Shown here piece by piece: positions 11,015 to 56,085 of a stretch of 64,000 nucleotides of DNA. A model generated the notes under the pieces. That model made no database searches and was not told where the DNA came from. It saw only the letters and a program-made list of their open reading frames with translations. This DNA is from Candidatus Nitrospinota bacterium M3_3B_026 (GTDB taxonomy: Bacteria > Nitrospinota_A > UBA7883 > JBPRGF01). Where the stretch lies: positions 172,127-236,126 of the forward strand of contig JBPRGF010000023.1 of assembly GCA_051418015.1 (NCBI GenBank), given 5' to 3'. Positions within the stretch are counted from its first letter, which is position 1. Each line of letters opens with the position of its first letter. The translations under genes were made by a program, and so were the position numbers.

Positions 11015-12379
11015 TCAGTCGCCGTATTGTATGGATCGCAGCCTTGATCTGACATCCGCGGGCAGGCGCGCCTCGTTTTTCAGCAGGGCGGGGGTGAGCT
11101 TTCCCTTCAGGAAAACGTCCAGTCTGCTCTCGGGGAACCCGAGGGCGCTCATGTAATCCTCGAAATAGGCCGACTCCGGCTCCTGCTCATCCTCCAGCAG
11201 CGCCCCATGGCAGAGGCCGGACACGTGCAGCGCGGCAAGCCCCGGCAGCGCGTCCTTCGGGATTTTCGCCGCCGGGAGGTAAAAGGGAAGGTTCTGAAGC
11301 TCCACCACACTGCCGACCCTCTCCGGCAGCTTCCAGCTTTTCAGCAGGGCTCCGGCGAGCCTGGCGTGGTCAAGGGTGTCGATCAGCTCGGCTATCTTGG
11401 GGTTTTTCCGTTTGAGCAGCAGGATTACGCTTCTCCCCACGTCGCTTAGCATCGCGATGGTGCTGTTCGTCCCGGCGGTCTCCCGGCTCGAAAGCAGGGA
11501 GACCTCGTGGGAGATGACGGAGAGCATGTAGGAGCGCTTCCTCAAGGCGGCGAAGTCCTCCCCCCTGGGCATCAGGTCGTGTATGCCGTGGTAAAGAACG
11601 AGCTGGTAAACCTGCGTGAAGCCGAGGAGCACTATCGCCCGGGAAAAGTCCGACACCTCCTGGGAGAGGCCGAAGTAGGGCGAGTTCACGGTCTTGAGGA
11701 TCATGGTGACAAGCGACGGGTCGAGCTTGACGGACTCGGCCACATCCTTCGGCGACGCGCGCTCGTCCAAAAGCTTCACGGCCAGCTCCCTTGCGCTCAA
11801 GGGGAGCTTGGGGATATTTTTGATGACTTCCGATACGAGCTCGGAGCGGATCACGTTCCCCCCGGTCTCCTCTTTCTCCCGGATGTAGGCCGAGAGCATG
11901 TTCTCCGCCCGCTCGACCCTGTGGAGGACGCCGAGCAGGCTTTCCATTCGCTCCTCGGCCAGCTCGGCAAGGCGCCTGAGCACGCGCAGCTGCACTCGTT
12001 CCGGGAAGTTGTCGAAAGCCTCGGGGGTGAACTCGAGGAGCGCCGACCGCCTGTTCGCGACGACGGTGGCCGTCCTCGGATTTTTGCTTATGAAGGCGAT
12101 CTCCCCCACGACATCGCCCTTGGACAGGGCGCCAAGCTTCCTGCGCGCGCCGTTGAAATCCTTGTGAACGTCCGCGCCGCCCTCGACGATGAGGTAGAAA
12201 GACCGTCTGGGATCCCCTTGTCTTATGATGAGGTCGCCGGAGGAATATTTACGCTCCGAGGCGGCCGAGTATACAAGCTCCAGGTCCCTGTCGCTCAGGC
12301 GTTCGAAGATAGGGGGGCGGAAAAGCTTTTCGGGGGTTTCATCCCCGGAGGCGTTTCTGGTTCTTGAGAAAATGGCCAT
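11015..12379 (-). CDS. cyclic nucleotide-binding domain + HDOD domain signalling protein
   Basis: 454 aa. N-terminal cNMP-binding fold (GDLIIRQGDP...FYLIVEGGADV...GEIAFI). C-terminal HDOD-like region. Confidence 0.7.
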   Translation of the reverse strand: MAIFSRTRNASGDETPEKLFRPPIFERLSDRDLELVYSAASERKYSSGDLIIRQGDPRRSFYLIVEGGADVHKDFNGARRKLGALSKGDVVGEIAFISKNPRTATVVANRRSALLEFTPEAFDNFPERVQLRVLRRLAELAEERMESLLGVLHRVERAENMLSAYIREKEETGGNVIRSELVSEVIKNIPKLPLSARELAVKLLDERASPKDVAESVKLDPSLVTMILKTVNSPYFGLSQEVSDFSRAIVLLGFTQVYQLVLYHGIHDLMPRGEDFAALRKRSYMLSVISHEVSLLSSRETAGTNSTIAMLSDVGRSVILLLKRKNPKIAELIDTLDHARLAGALLKSWKLPERVGSVVELQNLPFYLPAAKIPKDALPGLAALHVSGLCHGALLEDEQEPESAYFEDYMSALGFPESRLDVFLKGKLTPALLKNEARLPADVRSRLRSIQYGD

Positions 12380-12442
12380 GTATCTTGCGGGCCCCGCGCT
12401 TTTTCGTGAATCTTATCACAGAATCATAAAAAACTTCCCTTT

Positions 12443-13903
12443 TCAGCCGCCGTGAGACTCTTTCGCCAGGGCCCCGTTTATCATATTGAAAAGTTTTTCC
12501 TCCACTTGCCCCAGGGCCGACAGGGCGAACTCCTTTTTGAAGGCCTCCAATGGCACGACAGCCTTCGCCATGGACTGGTGCCCCCCCGCGCCTCCAAGCC
12601 TTGAGAAAAGCTCCGTGGCGACGTCACCCGCCCACAGGCCCGACGACGACATGTTCCGCATGGAGACGACGATGTTCCCCTCGTACACGCCCCCCACCGC
12701 CGTCCAGGAGCCCTCGCCTATCTGCAGGGAGAAGTCCGCCAGCCTGGGGATGATGTCCTCCTTTTCGATCTCGCCAAGCCACATGAACACAAGCTCCCCC
12801 TTCTCGCGCCTGTTGTTTATGGCCCGGACGAAATATGAAAGCTCCTTCGGGTCCAGCCTGGGCCGGGACATGCTGGAGAGAAGATGCGTGTTCCCGATAG
12901 GCCACAGCGCCGTGAAAGCCTCGAAATCCCGCCGGGAGGTGTCGCGGGCAAGGGTCATGGTGTCGCTTATTATCCCGTAGAGCAGCGCCGTGGCCAGCCG
13001 TTGCGTGATGGGCGTCCCCGCGGCGGCGAGATACTCGTACAGCATGGTGGAGGTGGCGCCGTAGGAGACATCGACGTCCTTGAACGCGGCGTCGTATTCA
13101 ACGGGGTACGGATGATGGTCCATCACCGCGTCGACACGGCCGAAAAGCCCCTCCTCGAAATAGGGCGGCTGAACGTCCACCATCACGACCCTGTCGAAAC
13201 CCGCCACATCCTTCCGCGAGATGCGCCGCACCCCGGTCCGCAAAAGACGGACCATCGCCTGGTTCTCCTTCCTGGCCACCTCCCCCAGCGAGCATATCGG
13301 GGCGCCCTCGCCGTCTCTGCCCAGGAGCGCCTGAGTGGCCATGCCGCAGGCTATCGCGTCGGGGTCCGGGTCGTTCTGGGTCATGATGAGCACCCTGTCC
13401 GCGCCGGAGAGGACTTTGAGAAGCCTGTGGACTTTCTGGCGGGTGTTTATCATGCTCCACTCGCCGGAAAGGCTTTTCTTGACCAGTTCCACGATGTTCA
13501 CCACAGAGACGTTGGCCAGCTTCTTAAAACGCGCGGGCTCCCCCTGGCTCGTCAGGGCCAGTATGGAGGGGGGGGCGGCGCGGGAGGAGAGAAACTCGAC
13601 AAGCCGCGAAAAGGACGAAAGGTCATCGGCGGCCAGCACCACCCTGTCCGACGAGGTTATGTCGAGCTTCGACACCTCGTCCAGGTAGAACTCGTTCCAC
13701 TCGAAAAGACGGCCGGGGAAGACCGGCGCCTGGCCGCTTTGAAGGGGGCCGATCTTGACCACTATCATGTCGTCGGGTCTTTCCGCCAGGCCGGATATCA
13801 CCGACAGGAGGTCATACCTGTACAGGAAAACAAAATATCTCATCTGAAAATTATAGACCATGCGCCCCAGGCGCGGGAGTCCTGGAGAACCCCCGAGCCC
13901 CAT
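12443..13903 (-). CDS. DHH-family phosphoesterase (NrnA/GdpP-like) with N-terminal extension
   Basis: DHH motifs are present (IMTQNDPDPDAIACG, MVDVQPPYF, VMDHHPYP) plus a DHHA1-like C-terminus (GGAGGHQSMAKA). Confidence 0.7.
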   Translation of the reverse strand: MGLGGSPGLPRLGRMVYNFQMRYFVFLYRYDLLSVISGLAERPDDMIVVKIGPLQSGQAPVFPGRLFEWNEFYLDEVSKLDITSSDRVVLAADDLSSFSRLVEFLSSRAAPPSILALTSQGEPARFKKLANVSVVNIVELVKKSLSGEWSMINTRQKVHRLLKVLSGADRVLIMTQNDPDPDAIACGMATQALLGRDGEGAPICSLGEVARKENQAMVRLLRTGVRRISRKDVAGFDRVVMVDVQPPYFEEGLFGRVDAVMDHHPYPVEYDAAFKDVDVSYGATSTMLYEYLAAAGTPITQRLATALLYGIISDTMTLARDTSRRDFEAFTALWPIGNTHLLSSMSRPRLDPKELSYFVRAINNRREKGELVFMWLGEIEKEDIIPRLADFSLQIGEGSWTAVGGVYEGNIVVSMRNMSSSGLWAGDVATELFSRLGGAGGHQSMAKAVVPLEAFKKEFALSALGQVEEKLFNMINGALAKESHGG

Positions 13904-32698: not shown

Positions 32699-33166
32699 AT
32701 GAGACCAAAATCCCTTGCGCCGGTACTGGAGGGGCACCCGTTCCTTGAGGGGATGGAGAAAAAGCACATCGACCTGATCGTGGGATGCGCCAAAAACGTC
32801 CGCTTCAACGCCGGGGACTACATCTTCCGCGAAGGCGAAGCGGCGAACGATTTCTACATCATCCGCCGGGGCCTCGTCTCGGTGGAGCTTTACAGCCCCC
32901 GGAAAGGCCCCATCTCCATCCAGACCCTTCGCGACGGCGACATACTCGGCTGGTCGTGGCTCATACCGCCACACCAGTGGCGGTTCGACGCGCGGGCGGT
33001 GGAGACAACGAGGGCCATAGCGCTGGACGGCGGATGCCTGCGCGGGAAGCTGGAGGACGACCACGGCCTCGGCTACCAGCTGCTGAAAAGATTCTCCCGG
33101 GTCATGGCAAAGACGCTCGAGGGCACGAGGCTCCAGCTGCTGGACCTTTACGGCGAAGGCGCATGA
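32699..33166 (+). CDS. stand-alone cyclic nucleotide-binding domain protein (no DNA-binding domain)
   Basis: 155 aa with a cNMP-binding fold (GDYIFREGEAANDFYIIRRGLVSVEL, GDILGWSWL). GGGGAG RBS. Its stop overlaps the ATG of the next gene (ATGA). Confidence 0.65.
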   Translation: MRPKSLAPVLEGHPFLEGMEKKHIDLIVGCAKNVRFNAGDYIFREGEAANDFYIIRRGLVSVELYSPRKGPISIQTLRDGDILGWSWLIPPHQWRFDARAVETTRAIALDGGCLRGKLEDDHGLGYQLLKRFSRVMAKTLEGTRLQLLDLYGEGA

Positions 33167-42613: not shown

Positions 42614-44218
42614 ATGAAAAGATATTTCTTTCTGTTCGCGCTGAGTCTTGCGTTAATCACCACGTTTTACACGCCACAAGCCCTGGCGGAGCCCGAAGCG
42701 CCACCGTTGAACCAGGATGAATGGCACATCGCCAAGAGCATCTACTTCAACAGGTGCGCCGGCTGCCACGGCACCCTGAGGAAAGGCGCCACGGGGCCCA
42801 ACCTCCTTCCGGAGAAGACCCTCGAATTCGGCACGGAGACCATCAGGAGCTTCATTATGGAGGGGACCGAGGGGGGCATGCCGGCCTTCGGCAGGGGCGG
42901 AATCCTGACGCCGGAGGAGGTCGACATCATGGCCAGGTTCGTCCAGCATGACCCCGTGGCCCCGCCGGAGATGTCGCTGGCGGACATGATGGAAAGCTGG
43001 AACCTTGTCGTGCCGCCGAACAAGAGGCCGAAAAAGCCGGCCCACAACAGGAACTGGCAGAACTTCTTCGGCGTGGTCCTGCGCGACGCTGGCCAGGTGG
43101 CCATCATCGACGGCGACACCAAGGAGAAGGTATCCACCGTCAACACAGGCTTCGCGGTGCACATCCTGCGCGCCTCGGCGTCGGGCCGGTATATCTTCTC
43201 AATCGGCCGCGACGGCAAGGCGACCATGATCGACACCTGGATGAAAAAGCCGTCCATCGTGGCCGAGGTCAAGACCTGCTCCGAGGCCCGCTCCATCGAC
43301 ACCAGCAAATACGAAGGCTACGAGGACAAGTACGCCGTGGTGGGCTGCTACTGGCCGCCGCACTTCGTCGTCCTGAACGGCGCCACGCTGGAGCCGATGA
43401 AAATCGTCAGCACCAGAAGCTACACCTACGACTCGTATGAGTACCATCCCGAGCCCCGCGTGGCGGCGATCGTCTCCTCGCACTACAGCCCGGAGTGGGT
43501 CCTGAACGTCAAGGAGACGGGCTACGTCTGGCTGGTCGATTACTCCGATATCGAGAACATGAAGATCACCCAGATCGAGTCTGAGCGCTTCCTTCACGAC
43601 GGGGGCTGGGACGCCAAGCACCGCTACTTCATGGCGGCGGCGAACATGCGCGACACCATGGTTGTCATAGACACCAAGACCAGGAAGAAGGTGGCGCAGT
43701 TCAAGGTCGGCACCAAGCCGCACCCGGGCCGCGGCGGAAACTGGGTCGACCCGAAATACGGCCCCGTCTCGGGCACGGTGCACCTCGGCGAGGGACTGCT
43801 CTCGGTGTGGGGGTCCGACCCTGAGGGTCACCCGGAACACGCCTGGAAGGTCGTGAGAAGCATCGAGCTTCCCGGCGGCGCCGGCAGCCTGTTCATGAAG
43901 ACCCACCCCAAGAGCAAACACATGTGGATGGACTTCACCCTGAACCCGGACCCGAAGAACCATCGCAGCGTATGCGTGATGGACATCAACAAGCCTAACA
44001 CCAAGGACCTGAACTGTTTCCAGGTGACCGACCACGGACGCGTCGTGCACATGGAGTACAACAAGAAAGGGGACGAGGTGTGGCTGAGCGTCTGGGACAA
44101 GGAGGGCGAGCTGGTCATCTACGACGACAGGACCCTGAAGGTCAAGAAGAGGATCAAGGGTCTTCGCACTCCCACGGGCAAGTTCAACGTGTACAACACG
44201 CAGCACGACATCTACTGA
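42614..44218 (+). CDS. nirS: cytochrome cd1 nitrite reductase
   Basis: 534 aa. Signal peptide, haem c site IYFNRCAGCHGTLRKGATG, a d1 beta-propeller, and a C-terminus FNVYNTQHDIY near-identical to Pseudomonas NirS. Confidence 0.92.
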   Translation: MKRYFFLFALSLALITTFYTPQALAEPEAPPLNQDEWHIAKSIYFNRCAGCHGTLRKGATGPNLLPEKTLEFGTETIRSFIMEGTEGGMPAFGRGGILTPEEVDIMARFVQHDPVAPPEMSLADMMESWNLVVPPNKRPKKPAHNRNWQNFFGVVLRDAGQVAIIDGDTKEKVSTVNTGFAVHILRASASGRYIFSIGRDGKATMIDTWMKKPSIVAEVKTCSEARSIDTSKYEGYEDKYAVVGCYWPPHFVVLNGATLEPMKIVSTRSYTYDSYEYHPEPRVAAIVSSHYSPEWVLNVKETGYVWLVDYSDIENMKITQIESERFLHDGGWDAKHRYFMAAANMRDTMVVIDTKTRKKVAQFKVGTKPHPGRGGNWVDPKYGPVSGTVHLGEGLLSVWGSDPEGHPEHAWKVVRSIELPGGAGSLFMKTHPKSKHMWMDFTLNPDPKNHRSVCVMDINKPNTKDLNCFQVTDHGRVVHMEYNKKGDEVWLSVWDKEGELVIYDDRTLKVKKRIKGLRTPTGKFNVYNTQHDIY

Positions 44219-44301
44219 TGGCAAGCGCGCGGTAACACCGTTGAGGGCGCCCCGGCGCGGCGGCAAGCCCCCGGGGCGCCCCGAATTAAAAGAGGCGCAT
44301 T

Positions 44302-46017
44302 ATGACCTCGCCATCCATGACGCGGATCGCGGCTCTCATCCTTGCGCCGGTGTTTATCTCCGGCCCCGGATCGGCCTTCGCCGAAACTTCCGCGAAGAAC
44401 CTCTATGGGGAGCATTGCGCGAGCTGCCATCACCCGAAAAGGCTGGGGCTCACGGCCCCTCCCTTGATACCGGGTCTTTTTTCAAGAAGCGCCAAGGGCC
44501 GCCTGCCCCAAATAATCCGCGACGGGCTTCCGGCCACGCGGATGCCGGCTTTCGGCGGCGAGCTTTCTGATGAACAGATAAAACTTCTGGCGGAACTCAT
44601 ACAAGAACCGGCGAAGGAGTTGGACTGGACTTTTGAGGACATACGGTCTAGCAAGATTGACATTGACGAGCCTGGAAAAGTTTTAAGAGCCGACATCGAG
44701 AATATAACGCTGGTCATGGAGCGCGGGACGCAGAGCCTCGTCGTTCTGGACGGCGCGGATTTCAGCGAGCTCGGCAGGTTCCACGTGGGCGCCGTCCACG
44801 GCGGGCCGAAGTTTTCGTATTCCCTGGATCGTGTGTACGCCCTTGCCAGGGACGGGATACTGACAAGCTATAATCTGAGAGCCCTTTCCGCCGAGACCAG
44901 GCTCAAGGCGGGGATAAACTCCCGCTCCGTCGCCGTATCAAGCGGCGACAAAACGGTGGCCGTGGCCAATTACCTTCCGTCCAACGTCGTCCTTTTCGAC
45001 AAAGACCTGGAGCCCGTCGGCGAGATACCACTGCCCGGAAAGGCGGGGGGGTTCTACTCGCTGCCGTCCCTGAAAAGCTTCGCCCTGTCGTTCAGGGAGA
45101 TTCCGGAACTCTGGATAATCGGCGAGAGCCCGCCTTTCGAGATCGAAAAACGAAAGCTGCCCGAGGCTTTCCAGGATTTTTCGGTCAGTCCCGTCAAGCC
45201 TTACATAATCGGGACGAAACGGGGCGGCGATCATATGTACATCTACGACTACATGGAGGACAGGATACTCAAAAAGATCCCCACCAGCGGCCTGCCGCAC
45301 CTGGCCTCGGCCGCGTTCTACATACACAAGGGCGAGCTTTTCGCCGGGGTCAACCACATAAAAAAGCCAGCGGCCACGATCATATCCCTCGACCGGCTCG
45401 ACAAGGTGGCCGAGATACCCCTTCCCGGCGCGGGCTTTTTCGTCCGGACGCATCATGCCACGCCGTACCTGTGGATAGATACCGAGACGGAGCGGATCGC
45501 CCTCGTGAACAAGGACGACTTCTCCGATATCCGCTACCTGACGCCCCACGAGGGGCGCAAGGCGATGCACGTGGAATTCACCAAGGAGGGCGCCCGCGCC
45601 CTGGTCACCATCCCGGGCAGGGGCGGCGAGGTGGTCATATACGACGCGAAGACCCTGGAAAAGATCAACGCCATCCCCTTCGAACGGCCCGTCGGCAAGT
45701 ACAACGCCACGAACAAGACGTACCCGGGCAGATCGCTCGCGGCGCGGAAGGCGGATGGGGCCAGCGCGGGCAAACAGGTCTTCGACAAATACTGCATGGG
45801 GTGCCACCACCAGGTCTACGAGGCGTTCGGGCCATCCTTCACCCGGATAGCCAGGGAGAGGGGCGCGGCAAGGATAAAGTTTCACATCCTGTCGCCCGAG
45901 GCCAGCGCAAAGACCCTGGGGTACAAGAGAAACTCCATGCCCAGGATAAAACTTTCGCCGGAGCAGCTGGAGGCGATAGTCAGATACATAAAAAGCTTCG
46001 GCCAGACGGGGGGATAA
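44302..46017 (+). CDS. nirN: cd1-family beta-propeller protein with N- and C-terminal c-type cytochrome domains (NirN-like fused to a NirC-like cytochrome c)
   Basis: 571 aa. Signal peptide. CASCHH at the N-terminus, a d1-type propeller, and a second CMGCHH motif in a C-terminal domain of about 90 aa. Confidence 0.65.
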   Translation: MTSPSMTRIAALILAPVFISGPGSAFAETSAKNLYGEHCASCHHPKRLGLTAPPLIPGLFSRSAKGRLPQIIRDGLPATRMPAFGGELSDEQIKLLAELIQEPAKELDWTFEDIRSSKIDIDEPGKVLRADIENITLVMERGTQSLVVLDGADFSELGRFHVGAVHGGPKFSYSLDRVYALARDGILTSYNLRALSAETRLKAGINSRSVAVSSGDKTVAVANYLPSNVVLFDKDLEPVGEIPLPGKAGGFYSLPSLKSFALSFREIPELWIIGESPPFEIEKRKLPEAFQDFSVSPVKPYIIGTKRGGDHMYIYDYMEDRILKKIPTSGLPHLASAAFYIHKGELFAGVNHIKKPAATIISLDRLDKVAEIPLPGAGFFVRTHHATPYLWIDTETERIALVNKDDFSDIRYLTPHEGRKAMHVEFTKEGARALVTIPGRGGEVVIYDAKTLEKINAIPFERPVGKYNATNKTYPGRSLAARKADGASAGKQVFDKYCMGCHHQVYEAFGPSFTRIARERGAARIKFHILSPEASAKTLGYKRNSMPRIKLSPEQLEAIVRYIKSFGQTGG

Positions 46018-46018
46018 G

Positions 46019-47188
46019 ATGTTCAGACTAAGCCATTATTACAACATAGCTGAAGGGCGCGCGGGCCGCGGCGGAAAGTCCCATGGCGCCAGATGCGGCG
46101 GGAAGCCGATCGTGATATGGAACCTCACGAGGACATGCAACCTCTCGTGCGTCCATTGCTACGCCTCGTCGAAGGCGCGCGGCTACAGCAGGGAGCTTTC
46201 CACGGAGCAGGCCGTCTCGGTCATGGACGGCCTTTACGCCGCCGGGGTGAGAACGGTCATCCTCTCCGGCGGCGAGCCGATGATCCGCGGGGATATCCTT
46301 AACCTTGCCGCAAGCGCTAAAGAAAAAGGCTTCATGACCTCCATCTCCACCAACGGCACACTTATAGGAGAGAAGGAGGCGGACAGGATAGCCGCCGCGG
46401 GGCTGGACTACGTCGGCGTGAGCCTGGACGGCATCGGCGAGACCCACGACCGCGTCCGGGGCGTCGAAGGCTCTTTCGAGCAGGCCGTGGCGGGGCTTTT
46501 CAGGCTGGCGGAGCGGGGGGTAAAATGCGGCGTGCGTTTCACGCTGACGAGGATGAACATGAACGACCTGCCGGCGATCTTCGAGTTCGCCGAGAAGAAC
46601 GGGATAGGGAAAATATATTTATCACACCTCGTCTACTCCGGCAGGGGTGGCGTCAATCGGGGGGAGGACGTCACCCCGGCTGAGACGAGGGAAGCGATGG
46701 ATTACGTTTTCAGCAAGGCGCGGGAGTACACGCGGCGCGGGCGCGGGCCGCAGATCGTCACCGGGAACAACGACGCCGACGCCGCGTACCTGCTCCTGCG
46801 TCTCATGGAGGGGAGCCCGGAGGGGGCCGAGCGGCTCCTGCCGGTGATGGAGAGGTTCGGCGGGGCCAACGCCGGGGTGGGGGTCGCGAACATAGACCCC
46901 ACCGGTGAGGTCCACCCCGATCCTCTCATGTCCTCCGTGAACCTGGGGAACGTCACCGAAAAATCTTTCGGTGAGATATGGCATGACTCCGAAAACCCCG
47001 TCCTGAAAAGGCTCCGGGCGAGGCCCCGCGTCTTCAACGGCCGGTGCGGACGGTGCGCCTGGCTGAAGGTGTGCGGCGGCTCCTGCCGCGTCCGGGCTCT
47101 GCGGATGACGGGGGACATGTGGGGTCACGACCCCGCCTGCTACCTTACCGACGAGGAAACCCAGGTTGAGCTTGCGCAGGCTGTATAG
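46019..47188 (+). CDS. nirJ: haem d1 biosynthesis radical SAM protein
   Basis: 389 aa. CNLSCVHCY radical SAM cluster plus a C-terminal SPASM-like Cys cluster (CGRCAWLKVCGGSC). Lies in the nir context. Confidence 0.8.
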   Translation: MFRLSHYYNIAEGRAGRGGKSHGARCGGKPIVIWNLTRTCNLSCVHCYASSKARGYSRELSTEQAVSVMDGLYAAGVRTVILSGGEPMIRGDILNLAASAKEKGFMTSISTNGTLIGEKEADRIAAAGLDYVGVSLDGIGETHDRVRGVEGSFEQAVAGLFRLAERGVKCGVRFTLTRMNMNDLPAIFEFAEKNGIGKIYLSHLVYSGRGGVNRGEDVTPAETREAMDYVFSKAREYTRRGRGPQIVTGNNDADAAYLLLRLMEGSPEGAERLLPVMERFGGANAGVGVANIDPTGEVHPDPLMSSVNLGNVTEKSFGEIWHDSENPVLKRLRARPRVFNGRCGRCAWLKVCGGSCRVRALRMTGDMWGHDPACYLTDEETQVELAQAV

Positions 47189-48338
47189 CGCTGTTATCCC
47201 GGCCGTTCTCGCGCTCGCGGCAGCAGCGGCGACAGCGGGCGAGTGGGGCACGGGGGCGCTCATGGTGGTCATCGAGCGCGAAAGCGGCTCCGTCCTGGTC
47301 ATAGACTCCGCCCAGGACCACAAAGTCCTGGGCAGGATAGAGGGTCTCGGCGTACTGCATCACGCATCGGTCTCCTTCTCCCGCGGCGGGCGCTACGGCT
47401 ACGTCGTCAGCCGCGACGGCTTTTTGAGCAAGATCGACCTTCTGAGGCTCGAAGTCACCGCCAGGGTGAAGGTGGGAGAGAGCGCCATCGGGCTGGCTGT
47501 CACGCAGGACGGGAAACATATCGCCATCAGCAATTACAAGCCGGGGAACATCGTCATCGTCTCCGATGAGACTTTTGAGATCGTAAAGACCATAGACGCC
47601 GACGAGTCGAAGACCGTCGGCCTCGTGGACGCCCCGGAGAACAGGCTGGTGGTCTCTTTAATGGACGCGAACGAGATATGGGTAATAGACGCGAACGATC
47701 CGGATTTCCCCGTCATCAAAAAGTTCAAGGACGTCGGCGAGAAGCCATACGACGGCCTGCTGACTCCCGACGGGCGGTATTACATCGCCGGGCTTTTCCA
47801 TTCCCCGTGGGCGGCGATGGTGGACCTCTGGAGCATGGACGGGGTTGAAAAAATCCCGCTGCCCGTCCCGCCCGAAAAAAAGGACAAACCGCCGGTCCTG
47901 AAGATCCCCCACCTGGAGGGGTGGATCATGGCCGGGCAGGGCCTTTTCGCGCCGGTGATAGGCGGCTCCGGGCTGGCGCTGATCGACATGGAGACATGGA
48001 AGGTAAAGAAGGTGATAGACCTGCTGGCATACCCCGTCTTCGCCATGGCCCAGCCGGACATGAGGAGGATATGGACCAACTACGTCCTGGGCGAACACCA
48101 CGACACCGTGCAGGTCGTGGACGTGAAAACCCTCGAGGTGGTCAAAACCCTCAAACCCGGCGACAAAATTTTCCACATGCAGTTCACGCCCAAGGGCGGC
48201 GCCGTCTACCTCTCCTCCAACGGCGACGACAAGGTCCTGATCTACGACACGAAGACTTTTGGGCTTGTCAGGGAGATATCAGCCAGAAAACCATCCGGGA
48301 TATTCTCAAGCGCCCGCTCCGCCACCTTCGGGCTGTGA
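47166..48338 (+). CDS. nirF: haem d1 biosynthesis protein NirF (d1-type propeller without haem c)
   Basis: 390 aa. Signal peptide. cd1-propeller-like repeats. No CxxCH. Confidence 0.7.
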   Translation: MSLRRLYSAVIPAVLALAAAAATAGEWGTGALMVVIERESGSVLVIDSAQDHKVLGRIEGLGVLHHASVSFSRGGRYGYVVSRDGFLSKIDLLRLEVTARVKVGESAIGLAVTQDGKHIAISNYKPGNIVIVSDETFEIVKTIDADESKTVGLVDAPENRLVVSLMDANEIWVIDANDPDFPVIKKFKDVGEKPYDGLLTPDGRYYIAGLFHSPWAAMVDLWSMDGVEKIPLPVPPEKKDKPPVLKIPHLEGWIMAGQGLFAPVIGGSGLALIDMETWKVKKVIDLLAYPVFAMAQPDMRRIWTNYVLGEHHDTVQVVDVKTLEVVKTLKPGDKIFHMQFTPKGGAVYLSSNGDDKVLIYDTKTFGLVREISARKPSGIFSSARSATFGL

Positions 48339-48488: not shown

Positions 48489-49592
48489 ATGAGCACGATC
48501 CTTATCGTGGACGACAACGAGGACAGCATTGTCCTTTACGAGTCCATCATCTCGTCGCGCGGCTACAGGGTCATCACCGCCGGCGACGGCGAGGAAGCCC
48601 TGGAGAAGCTTAAAGCCGCCGAAGGGGGCGTGGACCTCGTCCTCTCCGACATCATGATGCCGAAAATAGACGGGCTGGGCCTTGCCAGGAGGATAAAGAG
48701 CGACCCCGACGCGCGCCACATCCCGGTGATCCTGCTCACCGCCGGGAAACGTGAGCGCGAGGACATGGCGGGCGGACTGGACGTCGGCGCGGACGACTAT
48801 CTCGTAAAGCCCGTGGACACCGTGGAGCTGATGGCGAGGCTGCGCTCACACCTGAGGGTGAAAAAGCTCCAGGACGAGCTGACGCTGGCGAACCGCCGCC
48901 TGGCGGAGATGAACGACAACCTGGAGCAGTTGGTCGAGGAGCGGACGGTCGAGATCATGCTGACCAGGAACGCGGCCATATTCGGCCTCGCCAAGATCGC
49001 CGAGCGCCGCGACCCGGAGACCGGCGGGCATCTTGAGAGGATACGCGAATACACCAGGGCGCTGGCCATCCAGATGCGGAAGGCGCCGCGTTTCAGGGAC
49101 GTGATCGACGACGACTTCATCGTCAATATCTACCAGTCCAGCCCCCTGCACGACGTGGGCAAGGTGGGCATCCCGGACAGCATATTGCTCAAGCCCGGCA
49201 AGCTGACGCCCGAGGAGTTCGAGATCATGAAAACCCATTCAACGATCGGCGGGGACTCCCTCGCGGCGGCGGAGCGCTCCTTCGCGGGTGACAGCTTTCT
49301 TTCCATGGGAAGAGACATCGCCTACTACCACCATGAACGGTGGAACGGGAAGGGATACCCGAAAGGTTTGGAGGGGGATGAAATCCCTCTCGCCGCCCGG
49401 ATAATGGCCCTGGCCGACGTCTACGACGCCCTGGTCAGCAAACGGGTCTACAAGGAGGCCATGTCCCACGAAGAGGCCAGGAAAATCATCCTGGGCGAAG
49501 AGGGGGAGCATTTCGACCCGGACATCGTGGCGGCTTTCCGGGAGATAGACCAGTTGTTCCTGGAGACAAGAAGAAAACACTCGGACGAGTGA
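48489..49592 (+). CDS. response regulator with HD-GYP phosphodiesterase domain (RpfG-like)
   Basis: REC domain (VDDNED...DLVLSDIMMP...DYLVKP). HD motif HDVGKVGIP. GYP motif WNGKGYPKGL. Confidence 0.85.
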   Translation: MSTILIVDDNEDSIVLYESIISSRGYRVITAGDGEEALEKLKAAEGGVDLVLSDIMMPKIDGLGLARRIKSDPDARHIPVILLTAGKREREDMAGGLDVGADDYLVKPVDTVELMARLRSHLRVKKLQDELTLANRRLAEMNDNLEQLVEERTVEIMLTRNAAIFGLAKIAERRDPETGGHLERIREYTRALAIQMRKAPRFRDVIDDDFIVNIYQSSPLHDVGKVGIPDSILLKPGKLTPEEFEIMKTHSTIGGDSLAAAERSFAGDSFLSMGRDIAYYHHERWNGKGYPKGLEGDEIPLAARIMALADVYDALVSKRVYKEAMSHEEARKIILGEEGEHFDPDIVAAFREIDQLFLETRRKHSDE

Positions 49593-49646
49593 ACGGAGGG
49601 TAAAAAGAAGACCTTTGCCTAACCTGGATGCTCCGGTGTTTTGAAG

Positions 49647-49739
49647 TCCTGAGCCGCAAGGCGAAGGATCTTGCCTTTGCCGTCCCATGATGAAATCAAG
49701 GTCCTTCACGTCACGGCGAAGACTCCGCTCGTTCAGGAC
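49647..49739. repeat. short inverted-repeat intergenic element (GTCCTGA...TCAGGAC)
   Basis: GTCCTGAGCCGCAAGGCGAAGG...CAAGGTCCTTCACGTCACGGCGAAG...CGTTCAGGAC. Lies between the convergent HD-GYP and CheY genes. Spurious + strand ORFs are called over it. Confidence 0.6.
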
Positions 49740-49787
49740 GGCGGCAACGGGCGGCAAGGCCGGTTGCGAAGGTATCGGAAAAGGCCC

Positions 49788-50174
49788 TCAAGCCCCCTGT
49801 CCCGGCTCCGGGGTCAGGACCTCCGCCACCGCCTCCAGCATCTCCTGCTGGTTGATCGGCTTCCTGAACACCTTTGCCGCTCCCAGGATGCTGGCCATCC
49901 TGAGCATGTCGGACATGTCATCCTTCGAGCCGCCGGAAATGACGATTATTTTGACGCCGGGGAAATCCTTCCGCAGCTTCTCCAGGACCTCTATCCCGCT
50001 CCTGCCGGGCATCATGACGTCGGTGACGATAAGGTCGGGCTTGTTCTCCTTGAAAAGACGCATCCCCTCCCCGCCGTCGGCGGCCTCCACCACGTTGTGC
50101 CCCCTCGGCTCAAGAAGATAGCGCAACGTCATGCGCATCAACTCGTCGTCGTCTATTACCAGTATGTCAGCCAT
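49788..50174 (-). CDS. single-domain CheY-like response regulator
   Basis: The true start is MADILVIDDDELM at 50174. DLIVTDVMMP and a conserved K are present. The ORF call to 50255 is a spurious extension. Confidence 0.75.
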   Translation of the reverse strand: MADILVIDDDELMRMTLRYLLEPRGHNVVEAADGGEGMRLFKENKPDLIVTDVMMPGRSGIEVLEKLRKDFPGVKIIVISGGSKDDMSDMLRMASILGAAKVFRKPINQQEMLEAVAEVLTPEPGQGA

Positions 50175-50451
50175 TACAGACCCCTGACAGATCAGGCGGA
50201 CGCGCGAAAAAACCTGGCCGCCCCCACTCGTTGAAAGCCTCAGCTTCGGCCGCAAGTTTACACAGATTCTACACCATGCCCGGTGTTTTTGACATTATAA
50301 CTTATCCATACAGCTTTCGAGCAGAAAAAACAAAGACTCCTCCCGCAGAACCCCGCGAGAGGTAAAATGATTTTTTACTATCCCCGGCGCCTCCGCGCGA
50401 TTGAGCGCGCTATTGATGAAATCTTTATAACCTGTTATTATTAATGGAATT

Positions 50452-51336
50452 ATGAAAAGCTTTGACCTGCGCCCGGCGAGATTCCTCCTGCTCTTCGCGG
50501 CGTTCGTTCTCGCCGCCTGCGGCGCCGAGCCCGGCGGGACGGCGCCAGACAGCGCGTCGGATGGCGCGGAAAACAGGCGCGCTTTCGGCCGCGGCGCCCC
50601 GGATAACACCCTCGCCCGGGAGCGGGAATTAAGGGAAAACCCGGCCTGCGGCAGGGCTGGCGAAGAGTTCGTCTTGCCGATCCTGTACATAGTGGACAGG
50701 TTCAACGAGTTCGTCTCCAAAACCGGCGGGGAAAAGGGGATGGCGCTCCTGCCCGCCGGACATCCGGACTCCCCCGATGGCGTCTCCGTCCTTGTCTGCC
50801 GCGATGAGGGAGTCGCCGCCTACGCTTACGGCAGGACGGTGGTTCTCGGCGGAGGTCTTCTGGCCGTCCTGAGGGACGCGGCCCGAAGCGCCGTGGTCTA
50901 CAACGGCGACGATGCGGCGATCAGGGCGAGGCTCGACCACATCGCCGCCAGGGCGAGGATGGGCGATTTCTCCGGCATTGCGTTCCCGGAGACGCGGGAG
51001 CGGACGCAAGACGACGACGGCGCGCGCGAGGCCGAGGAGCTTTTCACCTCCGCCACGGCGTTCGTGCTGTTCCACGAGCTCGCCCACACCCAGGCCGGCC
51101 AGGAGGCGGCAAAGATGGATTACCCAGACCCTTACGCCGAGCTCAAGGCGGATATCTTCGCCGCCGAGGTCATGCGCCCGACCGGCTTCAGCATGGAGGG
51201 AGTGGACCTCGTTTTCGAGGTGCTGGAGAGGCTGGCCCCCGGCGAGTCCATAGGGCACCTGCCGCCATGGGAGAGGGCCAGGGCGGTTAAAGAGGCCGAA
51301 GGGGATTACGGCCCCCTCGCCTTCGCCCGGGAATAG
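50452..51336 (+). CDS. lipoprotein with HExxH zinc-metallopeptidase-like motif
   Basis: Lipobox LAAC. FVLFHELAHTQ motif. 294 aa. Confidence 0.45.
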   Translation: MKSFDLRPARFLLLFAAFVLAACGAEPGGTAPDSASDGAENRRAFGRGAPDNTLARERELRENPACGRAGEEFVLPILYIVDRFNEFVSKTGGEKGMALLPAGHPDSPDGVSVLVCRDEGVAAYAYGRTVVLGGGLLAVLRDAARSAVVYNGDDAAIRARLDHIAARARMGDFSGIAFPETRERTQDDDGAREAEELFTSATAFVLFHELAHTQAGQEAAKMDYPDPYAELKADIFAAEVMRPTGFSMEGVDLVFEVLERLAPGESIGHLPPWERARAVKEAEGDYGPLAFARE

Positions 51337-51355
51337 CCGCCGCCCCAGGCTTTCC

Positions 51356-53596
51356 CTACTTGGCGAGGTCGTACACCCCCTCCCAGTCATCCGTCGGCAG
51401 CTCCCGCATGAGCCGCGATATCCTCTCCAGGTAAAGCGACACAGCCTTGTCCTCGCCGCCCGCCGCGGCGTCGAGGTTTTTGAATATCTCTAAGGCGCGG
51501 GAGAGGGCGCGTCCCTGGAACGCCTTCACCGCCTCCTGGAACTCGTGGGCGAAGCGCCGCTGCTCCTCCGTCGCGGCGTCTTTCTCCTCGATGACCTCGT
51601 AAACCCTGATAGGCTCCTTCTTCCCGGCCACCCGCACCCTGTCCAATTCCCTGAGCAGGAACCTGTCGGCCACCTCGGCGCGGGTGAACTCCGATATCAT
51701 TATCTTCGACCCGTAATACTTGTTCGCTCCCTCCAGGCGGGAGGCCAGGTTCACGGCGTCGCCCATCATGGTGTAGTCCATCCTGTCCTTGGACCCCATG
51801 TTGCCCACCACCATCGGGCCGGTGTTGATCCCCATCCTGACGTTTATGTCGGCCTTCGCCCCGCGCCGCCACCTTTCCCTGTCCGCGGCTATCCTTCGCT
51901 GCATCATCACCGCCGCGAGAACGCAAAGCTCGGCGTGATTCTTCACGTCGAGGGGCGCGCCCCAGAAGGCGATGATCGCGTCGCCCTCGTACTTGTCCAC
52001 TGTCCCGTCGAGCTCCAGGATTATGTCCGTCATGGCGGAGAGGTAGTCGTTCAACAGCGCCACCAGCTCGTTCGGCTGGAGTTTCTCGCTTATGCTGGTG
52101 AACCCGGCTATGTCCGAAAAAAAGGCGGTCATCTCCCTCTTCTCCCCGCCGAGTTTCAGCAGACCGGGGTCTTCTATAATCTTCGCGATCACCTTGGGGG
52201 AAAGGTAATGCCCGAACGCCTCCTGGATGAACTTCTTGGACTTGCGCTCGGCGACGAACTGGTAAACCGTGATCGTCAGGTAGCCGAGCCCGATCGTCCC
52301 GGAGGGGATAACGCTGTTGAACCAGACCAGCTTCTCCCTGAACATCCAGTAGTTGAACCACCCCAGCGCCCCGAACAGAAGCAGGGCAAATACAAGCCCT
52401 ATGTATATGTTGACCCTTGGGATGACCAGCAGCAGGACCAGCCCGATGACAACCGCCAGGGCCGCGTCGTAGGCGCTCTGGTATCCGAACTTGGTGACGG
52501 ACAGGTTATTGAGCGCGGCGGCCATGGCGTTCGCCTGGACCTCGACGCCGTTCGTCTGGCCGTAGGGGGTCGTCCGCACATCCTTGATCTCCGTAGCCGT
52601 GGCCCCCACCAGCGCCAGCCGCCCGGCCAGCATCCCGCGCAGCCTCTCGTCGTCCGGCGGCGCTTCCATGAGCGTCTTGACGGAGACGCTGTTGAAAATC
52701 CCCTCCGGCCCGAGAAAGCGCAGGAGAACCATCCCGTGCTCGTCCGTGTCCACGAAATGGCTTCCCAGTCCCACACCGTGAAAGACGCCGTGCTTGAAAT
52801 AGACGTAGGTGTCGTTCAACACCCCGCCGTAGAGCGCCACCGAAGCAAGAGCCAGCGAGGGATAGAAGTCTCCCTTGTGCTCCATGACCATGGGATATGA
52901 GCGGAAAACCCCGTCCGGGCCCGACGCGACGTTCAAAAACCCCGACGCCGCGGAGACCTTCTGTATGACCGGGATGTTGGGCGCCACGCTGGTCATCCCG
53001 GCGTCTATCGACACCTCGCGGCTGTCCTTGGTCCTTCGAACGAGCTTGATCCTGAAGGGCCTTATCTGTTTTCGCTTCTCCTCCCGCGCTTCGGCGGTGA
53101 ACTCGTCGCCCTTGTGGAACAAAAAGCCCGTGACGACGTTCCCCGCCTTCCTGAGCGACCCGGCCAGCGCGTCGTCTCTGGACACCTCCCCGCGCAAAGC
53201 CAGAAGCTCGCTGTAGAACCCAGGATGCGCCCTGTCCACCCCCTCTTCCTTCGCCGCTTCGCCGATCCTCTCCACGACCTCCCCGGTCAGCTTGTTAGCC
53301 TCGGTCGTGAAAGTCATGTCCAGAGCCGTCACCACGGCGCCGTATCCGGCCAGCTTCTCCACTATCTCGCCGATGAAGCTCCTGGGCCATGGCCACCTGC
53401 CGAAGGCGTCCAGAGAGCTTTCGTCCACGCCGACTATCACTATCCTGGGGTCCGGCTCGTTGGGGGCGGTCTGCTTGATAAGAAGATCGTATATCTTCAG
53501 CTCGAACTCCTCGATGAAACCCGGCGGACGAAAGGCGAGGAGAGCCAGCACGGCCAGCAGCGGAAGGTATATCCTGCCAAGGGAGATCATCGCCAA
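51356..53596 (-). CDS. CHASE2 sensor domain - class III adenylate/guanylate cyclase
   Basis: 746 aa. N-terminal TM plus a periplasmic CHASE2 domain and TM bundle. C-terminal cyclase homology domain (FFSDIAGFTSISEKL ... GDAIIAFWGAP ... GINTGPMVVGNMG). Confidence 0.85.
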   Translation of the reverse strand: MAMISLGRIYLPLLAVLALLAFRPPGFIEEFELKIYDLLIKQTAPNEPDPRIVIVGVDESSLDAFGRWPWPRSFIGEIVEKLAGYGAVVTALDMTFTTEANKLTGEVVERIGEAAKEEGVDRAHPGFYSELLALRGEVSRDDALAGSLRKAGNVVTGFLFHKGDEFTAEAREEKRKQIRPFRIKLVRRTKDSREVSIDAGMTSVAPNIPVIQKVSAASGFLNVASGPDGVFRSYPMVMEHKGDFYPSLALASVALYGGVLNDTYVYFKHGVFHGVGLGSHFVDTDEHGMVLLRFLGPEGIFNSVSVKTLMEAPPDDERLRGMLAGRLALVGATATEIKDVRTTPYGQTNGVEVQANAMAAALNNLSVTKFGYQSAYDAALAVVIGLVLLLVIPRVNIYIGLVFALLLFGALGWFNYWMFREKLVWFNSVIPSGTIGLGYLTITVYQFVAERKSKKFIQEAFGHYLSPKVIAKIIEDPGLLKLGGEKREMTAFFSDIAGFTSISEKLQPNELVALLNDYLSAMTDIILELDGTVDKYEGDAIIAFWGAPLDVKNHAELCVLAAVMMQRRIAADRERWRRGAKADINVRMGINTGPMVVGNMGSKDRMDYTMMGDAVNLASRLEGANKYYGSKIMISEFTRAEVADRFLLRELDRVRVAGKKEPIRVYEVIEEKDAATEEQRRFAHEFQEAVKAFQGRALSRALEIFKNLDAAAGGEDKAVSLYLERISRLMRELPTDDWEGVYDLAK

Positions 53597-53641
53597 CCTC
53601 TAAAAAAACCGCCGCCGGGCGGCGCGCCCCGGCGGCCGCCG

Positions 53642-54811
53642 TCAGAAACTGTACACCAGCCCGGCGTCCACGTTAAAGACGTCGTAGGCGGCGTCCTCGG
53701 ACGACGCGGCGTCCTTTTTGTCCAGAACGCGGGAATAGCGCGCCCGCAGCGTCGCGTAGACGCTGGAGCTGAAGCTCCAGGTCATCCCCGGCTCGATGTA
53801 CGCCTTGCTCCGGCCGGCGTCGTAGTAATCGTCCTCCTCGTGATAGCCGTTCGCGCCCACCTCCTTGTAGCCGAGAAGGCCCGTTGCGGAAAGCCTGCCG
53901 GAGAATTTGTACGAGCCGCTGACATATGCCTCCAGGGAGTTGTTGTTGGAGTTGGCCCGCTCGCTCTCCAGGGTGTCGCCGTCGCCTATGACCTCGTTTT
54001 TCCGCTGTGTGGAATACGTGACCCCCGCCACGCTGGTGAAAGACCCGCCCCACTTGCGAATGTAGCGGGCGGTGGCGATGATGACATCCCCCTGCCGGAA
54101 AACGCCGCGCCCGCTCTGCTTGTCCTCTCCGTACCGGCTGTAGGCAAGTGAGAAAAGGGCGTAGTCCTCCCCCACGGTCCGCGCCACCGTGTTCAGGACG
54201 AGAAGAAGCCTGTCCCCTGGGTCGAACTCGTCGCCCGCGGTCTCGGTGGCGGGGTCGTATTCCCCCGTGAACTCGTACCGCGCTCCCAGCCCCGCGGCGC
54301 CCCATTTGAACCTGTATACCGCCATCAGGTGCGGCGCGACGTTGAGCCCGGCGCCGTAGGTGTTTATCAGCATCAGGTCCTGGCTCAGGTCGTCCACCAT
54401 CACTTTCTTGAGCTCGTCCTCCGAGTACGAGCTTTTCCCGGTGGGCGCGCCCACGTCCACCCCGCCGCGAAGGGTGAGCCCGCCTCTTTTGATGGAGTAG
54501 TACGTGGATATGTCCGTGTCCGCCAGCGTCGTGACATCGAACCTGTCCTCGGCGTGGGAGGCTTTGTACGAGGTGCTCACGAAAACGCCGTTTATCGCCG
54601 CGCCCCAGCTTTTCCCCTCGTAGGAGACTTGCGCGAAGCTCAAAGCCTGCGTCCCGTCGCTGTCGAGGTCGCCGGTCCTCCATGAGCCGTAATTCAGGGA
54701 AAGCGAGACAAGCCACGGCCGCTTTTCGTCTTCGCCGTGGGCGACGCCGGCCGTCCCCGCGAGAAGGGCCGCCAACAGCGCGAAACCGGACAACCACGGG
54801 CGGCGTTTCAT
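53642..54811 (-). CDS. outer-membrane beta-barrel protein
   Basis: Signal peptide and alternating amphipathic strands. C-terminal ...GLVYSF with a terminal Phe. Confidence 0.5.
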   Translation of the reverse strand: MKRRPWLSGFALLAALLAGTAGVAHGEDEKRPWLVSLSLNYGSWRTGDLDSDGTQALSFAQVSYEGKSWGAAINGVFVSTSYKASHAEDRFDVTTLADTDISTYYSIKRGGLTLRGGVDVGAPTGKSSYSEDELKKVMVDDLSQDLMLINTYGAGLNVAPHLMAVYRFKWGAAGLGARYEFTGEYDPATETAGDEFDPGDRLLLVLNTVARTVGEDYALFSLAYSRYGEDKQSGRGVFRQGDVIIATARYIRKWGGSFTSVAGVTYSTQRKNEVIGDGDTLESERANSNNNSLEAYVSGSYKFSGRLSATGLLGYKEVGANGYHEEDDYYDAGRSKAYIEPGMTWSFSSSVYATLRARYSRVLDKKDAASSEDAAYDVFNVDAGLVYSF

Positions 54812-55890
54812 CTGAGGTCGATGATAATGTCGAAGGTTGTCTTGCTGACGGGTGGGGCGGCTTCTCCCCCGCTCTTCGTCTTCTGCTCCACTATCCCCTG
54901 CTCGCCGGTATTCTGGCCCTCGACCCCCTCGTCGGTTCCCACCTTGTCAGGCGCGATTTGCTTGGGGATGGAGACGCTCCTGGTCATGTTGTTTATGGCC
55001 ATGCTCTCCGCGGCGTCCTGGGGAGGGGGCGGCGGCGGAGAAGACGGCTCAGGAGGAGCGGGAGCCCCGGCCTTTTCCTGAGCTTTCTCAGGCTCTTTGC
55101 CGGGCTTTTCCTCGGGGGGCGCCTCCGGCTCTTCTTTCTTCTCCTCCTCTGGCGCCTTCGGGGCGGGCTTTGGCTTTTCGGCCGGGGGACGCTCCTTTTT
55201 CGGCGTCGTTTTAAAGGGGATCGTCCTGTTGAGATTCCTCAGGCGCGCGGGCGAGATGGGGAACGGCTTGAGAGGCGGCGCCCCGGGCGTGACGGCGGTG
55301 CGGCGTCCGGCTGTCAGGTTCACGACGGTCGCCGCCGGGTCGAACCCGCGGACATAGACCTGGCCCTTCTCCCCGGCCCTTCCGAGCAGGTCTATCGACG
55401 TCCTTTCCTTCTTGTGCTCCACGACGAAGGGGGGGGTTCCAGCGACGCCGCATATCGCCGCCTTGGTGTGGTATTCGAACTTGGAATCCGGCGTGGTCAG
55501 CTTCGTCACGGAGGCTTTCACCCTCCCCACCATCAGTCCGAACACGGAGGATGTGGCCCCCTTCTCGTCCCTGCTCAGCGATTTTATGACCATGTCCGTG
55601 TCACGGTCCACGCGCATCAGGTCGCCGGTGTCGAACTCTATCTCAATGATTCCGTCGGCGGCGGTCCTGATCCTGTCCCCCTCGCTGAACACCATTCCGA
55701 TGGACACCTCGCTCTCCCTGGAGTCGGCCGCCGATATGACCATGACCTTCCCTTCCACGTAGACGGCTTCGGCGATTATCGGCGTGGAAGACGCAAAAGT
55801 TGGTGACCCAACGGATAAAACCAGCGCGAAGACGAAGACGGAAAAAAAACCCGCGCCAAAGTTGCTGGGGATCGACCCGGGGATTCTCAT
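54808..55890 (-). CDS. FecR-domain protein with Pro/Glu/Lys-rich linker
   Basis: Likely start MRIPGS at 55890. N-terminal TM, then a FecR-like beta domain (DRIRTAADGIIEIEF...), then a PEPK-rich low-complexity tail. Overlaps the start of the downstream barrel gene. Confidence 0.6.
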   Translation of the reverse strand: MRIPGSIPSNFGAGFFSVFVFALVLSVGSPTFASSTPIIAEAVYVEGKVMVISAADSRESEVSIGMVFSEGDRIRTAADGIIEIEFDTGDLMRVDRDTDMVIKSLSRDEKGATSSVFGLMVGRVKASVTKLTTPDSKFEYHTKAAICGVAGTPPFVVEHKKERTSIDLLGRAGEKGQVYVRGFDPAATVVNLTAGRRTAVTPGAPPLKPFPISPARLRNLNRTIPFKTTPKKERPPAEKPKPAPKAPEEEKKEEPEAPPEEKPGKEPEKAQEKAGAPAPPEPSSPPPPPPQDAAESMAINNMTRSVSIPKQIAPDKVGTDEGVEGQNTGEQGIVEQKTKSGGEAAPPVSKTTFDIIIDLR

Positions 55891-56085
55891 CCGGATCAAC
55901 CGGAAAAGCTTGTTGAGTGAAACATGACGCCGCTTTCGCGCCTCCGCCGATATGAAAGCTTTGGCTTTTTGAATCAGTATTTTACAAGGGAGTCGCGATG
56001 TTGTCAACGAAAGCGCGGCTCTTTTTTCAAAGCGGCGGGCCTCCGCCTGCTTGACAATTTCCAGGCGCGAGGGGCGGTGGTATAA

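Follow-up and report, generated by a model that had tools for sequence, protein, structure and literature searches.

A FecR-domain protein, a predicted outer-membrane β-barrel and a CHASE2 adenylate cyclase encoded by consecutive genes in a Nitrospinota genome

The window considered in the current analysis is a stretch of 64,000 nucleotides from Candidatus Nitrospinota bacterium M3_3B_026 (contig JBPRGF010000023.1, positions 172,127 to 236,126, of assembly GCA_051418015.1). Three consecutive genes have been identified on its minus strand, which code for a secreted FecR-domain protein, a secreted protein that models as an outer-membrane (OM) β-barrel and an inner-membrane cyclase of the ATP-using type with a CHASE2 sensor domain, and their order is kept in related Nitrospinota. 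A combination of FecR domain, OM barrel and CHASE2 cyclase has not been described before in this phylum, and a literature search on Nitrospinota and adenylate cyclase returned nothing relevant. The gene set is based on the open reading frame (ORF) list of the window, cross-checked with independent gene calls on an identical metagenome contig from Logan SRR28149505. The FecR protein is 100% identical to one recorded for M3_3B_026. All the genes named in a preliminary description of the region are found at the places given there, with three start codons corrected, and its domain assignments (REC-HD-GYP, CheY, CHASE2 cyclase and FecR) all score above the Pfam cut-offs.

Three consecutive genes on the minus strand

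The features of the three-gene locus, in the order of transcription, are the following.

55979..56007, minus strand: promoter-like site upstream of the FecR gene (TTGACA, 17 nt, TAAAAT; a consensus match only, at 11 of 12 positions)
54808..55890, minus strand: secreted FecR-domain protein of 360 amino acids (aa), from Pfam, gene call, AlphaFold2 and Foldseek
53642..54811, minus strand: predicted outer-membrane 16-stranded β-barrel of 389 aa, from a signal peptide, a C-terminal VYSF and the predicted model
53602..53636, minus strand: terminator-like hairpin between the barrel stop codon and the Shine-Dalgarno sequence and ATG of the cyclase
51356..53590, minus strand: CHASE2-sensor class IIIb adenylate cyclase of 744 aa, from Pfam, a PDB match and located catalytic residues

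The likely start of the FecR gene is corrected to the ATG at 55890, the first ATG with a signal peptide after it, from the ORF end at 56007, because the promoter-like TTGACA-17-TAAAAT at 56007-55979 falls inside the longer ORF. The promoter scan gave seven such sites in the region where 1.7 are expected. The FecR domain (PF04773) scores 29.8 bits against a Pfam cut-off of 24 and lies directly after a Sec signal peptide with cleavage at ...SPTFA/SS. The β-domain at about residues 36-225 is modelled by AlphaFold2 with a predicted local distance difference test score (pLDDT) above 90; the confidence is low past about residue 230, with a linker rich in Pro, Glu and Lys at about 230-290 and a tail that reaches a pLDDT of about 50 when modelled alone. 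The fold matches obtained with Foldseek (E-value about 4e-5, target-normalised template-modelling score 0.53) are the C-terminal cell-surface signalling domain of PupR (6OVK), which is the best, and BDI_1681, a Bacteroidetes anti-sigma factor.

When 29 homologues are aligned, a conserved FecR domain is seen to be followed by a linker that is very variable in length and is Pro/Glu/Lys-rich in the copy of the window. The C-terminal region of about 65 residues is again conserved and ends in an alternating hydrophobic strand with Lys/Arg (TFDIIIDLR in the window). A tail that is conserved and yet disordered when modelled alone would be expected if its folding required contact with a partner. Neither a cytoplasmic anti-sigma domain nor a transmembrane (TM) anchor is apparent in the sequence, the alignment of homologues or the AlphaFold2 model, and for this reason the protein is not an anti-sigma factor of the FecR type. 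The ORF list and gene calls reveal no sigma-factor gene and no gene for a TonB-dependent receptor in the cluster.

The stop codon of the FecR gene overlaps the start of the next gene in the ATGA at 54808-54811, as the preliminary description had stated. The product of this middle gene has no family match in Pfam or NCBIfam. It is modelled with a pLDDT of 80 when 12 homologues are used, and 16 strands can be counted from the pattern of strands, loops and turns, so that it models as a 16-stranded OM β-barrel. The best fold matches are the exopolysaccharide export porins PgaA, BcsC and PelB, to which the sequence identity is 7-11%, and the two-partner secretion protein CdiB is also among the matches. 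In PgaA, BcsC and PelB the barrel comes after a periplasmic tetratricopeptide repeat (TPR) domain, unlike the barrel of the window, which has no N-terminal TPR and no adjoining Pga, Bcs or Pel synthase genes. A profile of the barrel searched against 1.8 billion representatives matches 910 clusters at E-values up to 1e-3 and 67 at E-values up to 1e-30; given these 910 clusters, the protein is a member of a sizeable, uncharacterised family of OM proteins. A fusion of FecR domain and barrel was sought among distant relatives with N-terminal extensions; these extensions are of low complexity and contain no FecR domain. In two long entries among the distant relatives, which may be true fusions or merged gene calls, the barrel is connected with fn3 repeats (P0087) or with an inverse-autotransporter β-domain and a β-helix (P0195). 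Fused or merged alike, they tie the barrel family to surface proteins.

The third gene starts at the ATG at 53590 (the ORF ran to 53596), in front of which lies a GAGG Shine-Dalgarno sequence. Its product comprises an N-terminal TM helix, a CHASE2 domain (PF05226, which scores 164.4 bits where the cut-off is 26.3 and spans residues 15-389 of the 746-aa ORF), a hydrophobic block, a cyclase domain (Guanylate_cyc, PF00211, 82.9 bits against 21.9) and a helical C-terminal extension. Hydropathy places hydrophobic segments at residues 1-26 and about 370-417, with further stretches to about 450, and thereby sets the CHASE2 domain between the TM helix and the hydrophobic block, that is, in the periplasm.

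The nearest solved relative of the catalytic domain is CyaB of Pseudomonas aeruginosa (PDB 3R5G, E-value 3e-41), which shares the layout of CHASE2, TM region and cyclase and the same catalytic motifs. To our knowledge no FecR or barrel partner adjoining cyaB has been reported. The motifs aligned to CyaB read FSD(493)IAGFT, DK(533)YEGD(537), DYT(607)MMGD and N(614)LASR(618)LE, by which all six canonical class III residues are located: D493 and D537 for metal binding, K533 and T607 for the substrate, and N614 and R618 for the transition state. A Lys with a Thr or Ser as the substrate pair is the signature of class IIIb adenylate cyclases, guanylate cyclases having a pair of the Glu/Cys type. From its motifs, then, the protein is assigned as a class IIIb adenylate cyclase with a complete set of catalytic residues, and its product should be cyclic AMP (cAMP) rather than cyclic GMP (cGMP). 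The preliminary description had left both products open and had named a lack of catalytic residues as one of the observations that would overturn it; the complete set speaks for its cyclase, and the Lys/Thr pair, which points to ATP as the substrate, speaks against cGMP. That the protein could instead be a guanylate cyclase, or a sensor that has lost its catalytic function, is scarcely credible. PF00211 does take in both adenylate and guanylate cyclases, but the six residues are all present, Lys533 and Thr607 are not a pair of the Glu/Cys type, and the close solved relatives in the PDB search (CyaB, Cya2-type and CyaC) are all adenylate cyclases.

The 51-nt spacer between barrel and cyclase contains a perfect 9-bp G-C hairpin with an 8-nt loop, followed by GGTTTTTTT, and the run of seven T after the hairpin stops about 10 nt before the start codon of the cyclase. 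The minimum free energy is -27.7 kcal/mol, with a z-score of only -0.69 against shuffled sequences, which is not exceptional in G+C-rich sequence. No promoter-like site was found by the promoter scan between the hairpin and the start codon, and the cyclase would for this reason need read-through and be expressed at a reduced level. The hairpin is weaker in one related locus (L002) and absent in two others (L003 and L010); in L023 the spacer of 294 nt between FecR gene and barrel gene (L023:5283-5577) has a long G+C hairpin with a run of T after it, at a different junction from that of the window. Termination or attenuation at these sites is suggestive only. The preliminary description had proposed a minus-strand operon of FecR, barrel and cyclase genes; the order and the overlap are borne out, but a single, clean operon cannot be taken as given, since the hairpin parts the barrel from the cyclase.

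Recurrence of the gene order and comparison with known systems

Homologues of the barrel were found in 16 independent loci, on which the neighbourhood counts are based; scans of genomes and of metagenomes with the profile of the barrel, for which a single peptide pattern was used, gave four and three loci only. The FecR gene is directly upstream of the barrel gene in all the 16 loci, and the stop codon of the former often overlaps the start codon of the latter. The order of FecR, barrel and CHASE2 cyclase is kept in five of them, namely the window and L002, L003, L010 and L023, which belong to related Nitrospinota/Nitrospirae. The most divergent of these, L023, has an identity of 40% for the FecR protein, 36% for the barrel and 47% for the cyclase, and the order of the three genes persists while the downstream flank changes. 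The recurrence of the trio in five and of the pair in 16 loci puts the arrangement beyond chance. Equal longest-contig sizes suggest that about nine further FecR/cyclase pairs share one contig.

A pairing of FecR proteins with CHASE2 sensors, which the preliminary description had called known, is indeed a published and recurrent one (PMC5192318, PMC9239204), and in the current analysis FecR genes are seen directly upstream of CHASE2 cyclases in plasmids of Ruegeria, Shinella and Sinorhizobium meliloti. In pSymB of S. meliloti a FecR protein of 1197 aa ends where cyaK begins, overlapping its start; this protein is NsrA. According to the pSymB record and to Pfam, NsrA has FecR at residues 66-160, TPR at 417-531 and, at its C-terminal end, a barrel, and CyaK consists of CHASE2 and cyclase. 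NsrA is an OM β-barrel receptor required for the plant-signal-dependent synthesis of cAMP by CyaK and CyaD1/D2 (PMC7529298, PMC13001267). The locus of the window thus shares with NsrA-CyaK the consecutive arrangement of a FecR domain, an OM barrel and a class III adenylate cyclase with CHASE2, in which the cyclase gene is the downstream one, and differs in its host, a Nitrospinota metagenome-assembled genome (MAG) in place of a rhizobium. The periplasmic TPR followed by a barrel in NsrA is also the layout of PgaA, BcsC and PelB, which is a resemblance and not evidence of homology.

The Shinella plasmid locus (L014:3882-10052) encodes a 469-aa protein with TPR and an OM-protein-barrel-like region, then a FecR protein of 849 aa with a C-terminal domain like that of factor-H-binding protein, then the CHASE2 cyclase, after which come NHLP bacteriocin export genes and a cyclic-nucleotide-binding protein. 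Neither the barrel nor the FecR protein of the window has detectable homology to this 849-aa protein or to NsrA.

A gene cluster of Campylobacterota comprises a CHASE2 adenylate cyclase, an OM protein with a FecR domain, a TPR protein and a cAMP phosphodiesterase, which were proposed to form a single, horizontally transferred pathway (PMC9239204). In this cluster, known from comparative genomics only, as in the window, the gene of a CHASE2 cyclase lies close to that of an OM component with a FecR domain; in the window the TPR protein and the phosphodiesterase are lacking and FecR domain and barrel are split. In the Burkholderia 'BiofilmReg' operon and in the PA4035-like pair of P. aeruginosa a LysM/FecR protein is encoded directly upstream of a CHASE2 histidine kinase (PMC5192318). 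These pairs likewise have a secreted FecR-domain protein directly upstream of a CHASE2 sensor; they differ in the output, which is a histidine kinase with a response regulator, in the LysM domain, in the lack of a barrel and in a DUF4136 lipoprotein that follows.

In the FecR/PupR-FecA/PupB systems too a periplasmic domain of FecR fold works with an OM barrel across the periplasm, as would that of the window. The periplasmic signalling domain of PupR/FecR, whose fold is found in the FecR protein of the window, binds the OM transducer. The window protein differs in its cleavable signal peptide and in having no anti-sigma domain, TM anchor or extracytoplasmic-function (ECF) sigma factor; its barrel is no TonB-dependent transducer with plug or signalling domain, and the output would be cAMP in place of the release of a sigma factor. 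On these comparisons the trio of the window represents a known design of FecR, OM barrel and CHASE2 cyclase in a split, non-orthologous form, and is not new in kind. The preliminary description had taken the barrel to suggest a trans-envelope device: such a device fits a relay into cAMP synthesis, but the barrel is not a novel element of it, as NsrA precedes.

A possible envelope-spanning relay and its alternative

The interpretation to which we lean, at somewhat better than an even chance, is that the three genes encode an envelope-spanning sensor which makes cAMP. The conserved C-terminal tail of the FecR protein would bind the barrel and so keep the protein at the outer membrane, and this docking would recreate in two polypeptides what NsrA has in one. 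The Pro/Glu/Lys-rich linker may then let the FecR domain span the periplasm and contact the CHASE2 domain, such that a cue from the surface or the envelope, sensed at the barrel, would change the activity of the cyclase and the level of cAMP. The terminator-like hairpin may lower the expression of the cyclase relative to the FecR and barrel proteins. Each contact between the proteins of this relay, and the nature of its signal, is a step that we infer.

Several observations weigh against this relay. A flank with RadA and DUF4124 is common to all the five trio loci, and the conservation may therefore reflect vertical synteny in one lineage and not selection. The cyclase is absent from 11 of the 16 independent loci with the FecR-barrel pair, and at least six of these (L006, L007, L008, L016, L019 and L022) carry a PKD-repeat protein with the pair; these PKD proteins are mutually homologous, with 37-58% identity. 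One of the six, L016, stems from SRR28149505, the run behind the identical contig used for the gene calls, and its FecR protein bears the name of the MAG of the window. The cassette of L016 (L016:3771-7263), like those of the other five loci, encodes a PKD/fn3-repeat protein, a shorter FecR protein of about 289 aa with the same C-terminal tail and a barrel, with no CHASE2 cyclase; this paralogous barrel is 47% identical to that of the window (hhalign 100%). Since the PKD loci carry the pair without a cyclase, the pair needs no cyclase next door. It is a reusable cassette with at least two alternative partners, of which the cyclase is one. The modelled barrel is no closer to any receptor than to polymer-export channels. 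NsrA is a single polypeptide with TPR, while the window has FecR domain and barrel in separate, overlapping genes without TPR, and the barrel of the window has no detectable homology to the C-terminal 697 aa of NsrA (hhalign probability 0.15%). The transcriptional coupling is also variable, as the hairpin lies between barrel and cyclase in the window and between FecR and barrel in L023.

Many of these points would be accounted for if the FecR protein and the barrel formed a self-contained unit for export or anchoring, of a polymer or of PKD/fn3 surface proteins, and the cyclase were adjacent through inherited synteny. This alternative, which we regard as unlikely but deserving of weight, draws on the exopolysaccharide and two-partner secretion channels among the best fold matches, on the cyclase-less cassettes with homologous PKD-repeat proteins, on the joining of the barrel to surface-protein domains in P0087 and P0195, on the hairpin between barrel and cyclase and on the same flanks in all the cyclase-linked loci; glycosyltransferase genes also lie about 3 kb off in the window, L002 and L003. 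It accounts less well for the recurrence of FecR proteins beside CHASE2 sensors in several unrelated phyla (PMC5192318, PMC9239204) and for NsrA, with FecR and barrel in one protein, being genetically required for signalling (PMC7529298); an accidental combination of FecR, barrel and CHASE2 is made less likely by both. The survival of the trio order down to 36-47% identity across a changed downstream flank, and the lack of a promoter-like site that could serve the cyclase alone after the hairpin, also argue against it.

A wider proposal would take in both kinds of locus. The FecR-barrel pair may be an undescribed modular OM tether or sensor of Nitrospinota and relatives, in which the conserved, β-strand-like FecR tail is docked in or on a PgaA-like, 16-stranded barrel and which is wired either to a CHASE2 cyclase or to PKD-repeat proteins, the former being an independent reinvention of the NsrA-CyaK relay in two polypeptides. 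We put this forward tentatively, as a possibility that is rather doubtful at present.

The signals of CHASE2 domains are largely unknown, and the only pathway resolved by genetics, that of NsrA and CyaK/CyaD in S. meliloti, uses one large multidomain OM protein. If the proposed sensor is real, its division into two small proteins, a secreted FecR protein and a barrel, would offer simpler parts for testing the transfer of a signal across the periplasm to a CHASE2 cyclase, and would help in testing whether FecR domains serve CHASE2 sensors in general as periplasmic adaptors. Regulated cAMP signalling would then also be known from the Nitrospinota, an environmentally important and mostly uncultured phylum. 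If the adjacency is synteny only, the finding shrinks to a routine annotation of signalling genes.

Neighbouring genes and the wider window

Three further genes of the region are neighbours of the trio and not demonstrated components of it.

48489..49592, plus strand: REC-HD-GYP response regulator of 367 aa (Pfam, NCBIfam), convergent with the CheY gene and adjoining nirN/J/F
49788..50174, minus strand: single-domain CheY-like receiver of 128 aa (Pfam and gene call), whose membership in the system is not demonstrated
50452..51336, plus strand: lipoprotein with a lipobox LAAC and a HELAH motif, whose membership in the system is uncertain

The preliminary description had noted a lipoprotein with an HExxH motif beside the locus, and the lipobox and the HELAH agree with this. 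The gene is convergent with that of the cyclase, with 19 nt between the stop codons, and a homologue adjoins the cyclase, again convergent, in L002 (11442-12362) and L003 (11469-12176) and not in L023. In direct Pfam scans the peptidase families stay below their cut-offs (U49 12.4 against 23.9, M78 15.7 against 22 and M48 12 against 20.3 bits), as does Lit of NCBIfam (30 bits against 274). The precomputed contig annotations give PF10463, Peptidase_U49, for this protein and for the homologue in L002; an assignment to Peptidase U49/Lit was rejected on the direct scans, with only the HExxH motif matched. The lipoprotein could be an envelope protease, with the FecR protein or a protein signal as its substrate.

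The start of the CheY gene is corrected to 50174 (the ORF ran to 50255), and Response_reg is the sole Pfam domain of its product. The HD-GYP regulator matches PF00072 with 93.9 bits and HD_5 (PF13487) with 111.4 bits, the HD family being matched as well, and the motifs LSD(54)IMMP, HDVGK and HHERWNGKGYP are readable in it. Its best match in NCBIfam is a 'NosR family' response-regulator cyclic di-GMP (c-di-GMP) phosphodiesterase, at 176 bits and below the cut-off of 400. A run of plus-strand genes at 42614-48338 of the window, for a NirS-like cytochrome cd1 nitrite reductase and nirN-like, radical-SAM nirJ-like and nirF-like proteins, leads directly into the gene of this regulator.

Domains of the cNMP_binding family, for the binding of cyclic nucleotides, are present in the products of two ORFs of the window. 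The one at 11015-12379 (minus strand) combines this domain with HDOD and has a canonical cassette, GEIAF...RTA; on this motif it is a reasonable candidate for a cAMP receptor. It adjoins a DHH/DHHA1 phosphoesterase gene (window 11015-13903, minus strand), 40 kb from the cyclase, and the domains of the two proteins would allow a possible pair of cyclic-nucleotide receptor and hydrolase. The other, a protein of 155 aa at 32699-33166 (plus strand), is encoded between a 4Fe-4S protein and NiFe-hydrogenase genes. Its cassette, read by eye, is GWSWL...RFDA and not GE...R[ST]A, which makes the binding of cyclic nucleotides doubtful.

The preliminary description had seen an integrated second-messenger neighbourhood here, with control of denitrification and hydrogenase genes by cyclic nucleotides. 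That the whole stretch of 7.5 kb is one such circuit, acting on these genes through the cNMP-binding proteins, is very improbable, although the position of the HD-GYP gene directly after nirN/nirJ/nirF and its sub-threshold match to a 'NosR family' regulator would suit it, as would L002, which keeps the HD-GYP and CheY genes and has in addition a REC-GGDEF gene, and the canonical GE...RTA cassette of the cNMP_binding-HDOD protein. HD-GYP domains cut c-di-GMP or cGAMP and not cAMP. The HD-GYP and CheY genes are transcription units apart from the trio; a homologue of the former in L002, the closest relative, is 76% identical, L002 is the only locus in which the two recur, and both are absent from L003 and L023, so that the integrated neighbourhood is not supported. 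The control of denitrification and hydrogenase genes fares no better, as the candidate receptors lie 20-40 kb off with no link or shared regulation shown, the 155-aa protein of the hydrogenase cluster is without a canonical cassette, and no histidine kinase is encoded nearby.

An Rfam scan of the window detected neither a riboswitch nor any other RNA close to the locus; its sole match is an RNase P RNA of class A at 8001-8404 on the minus strand (296 bits).

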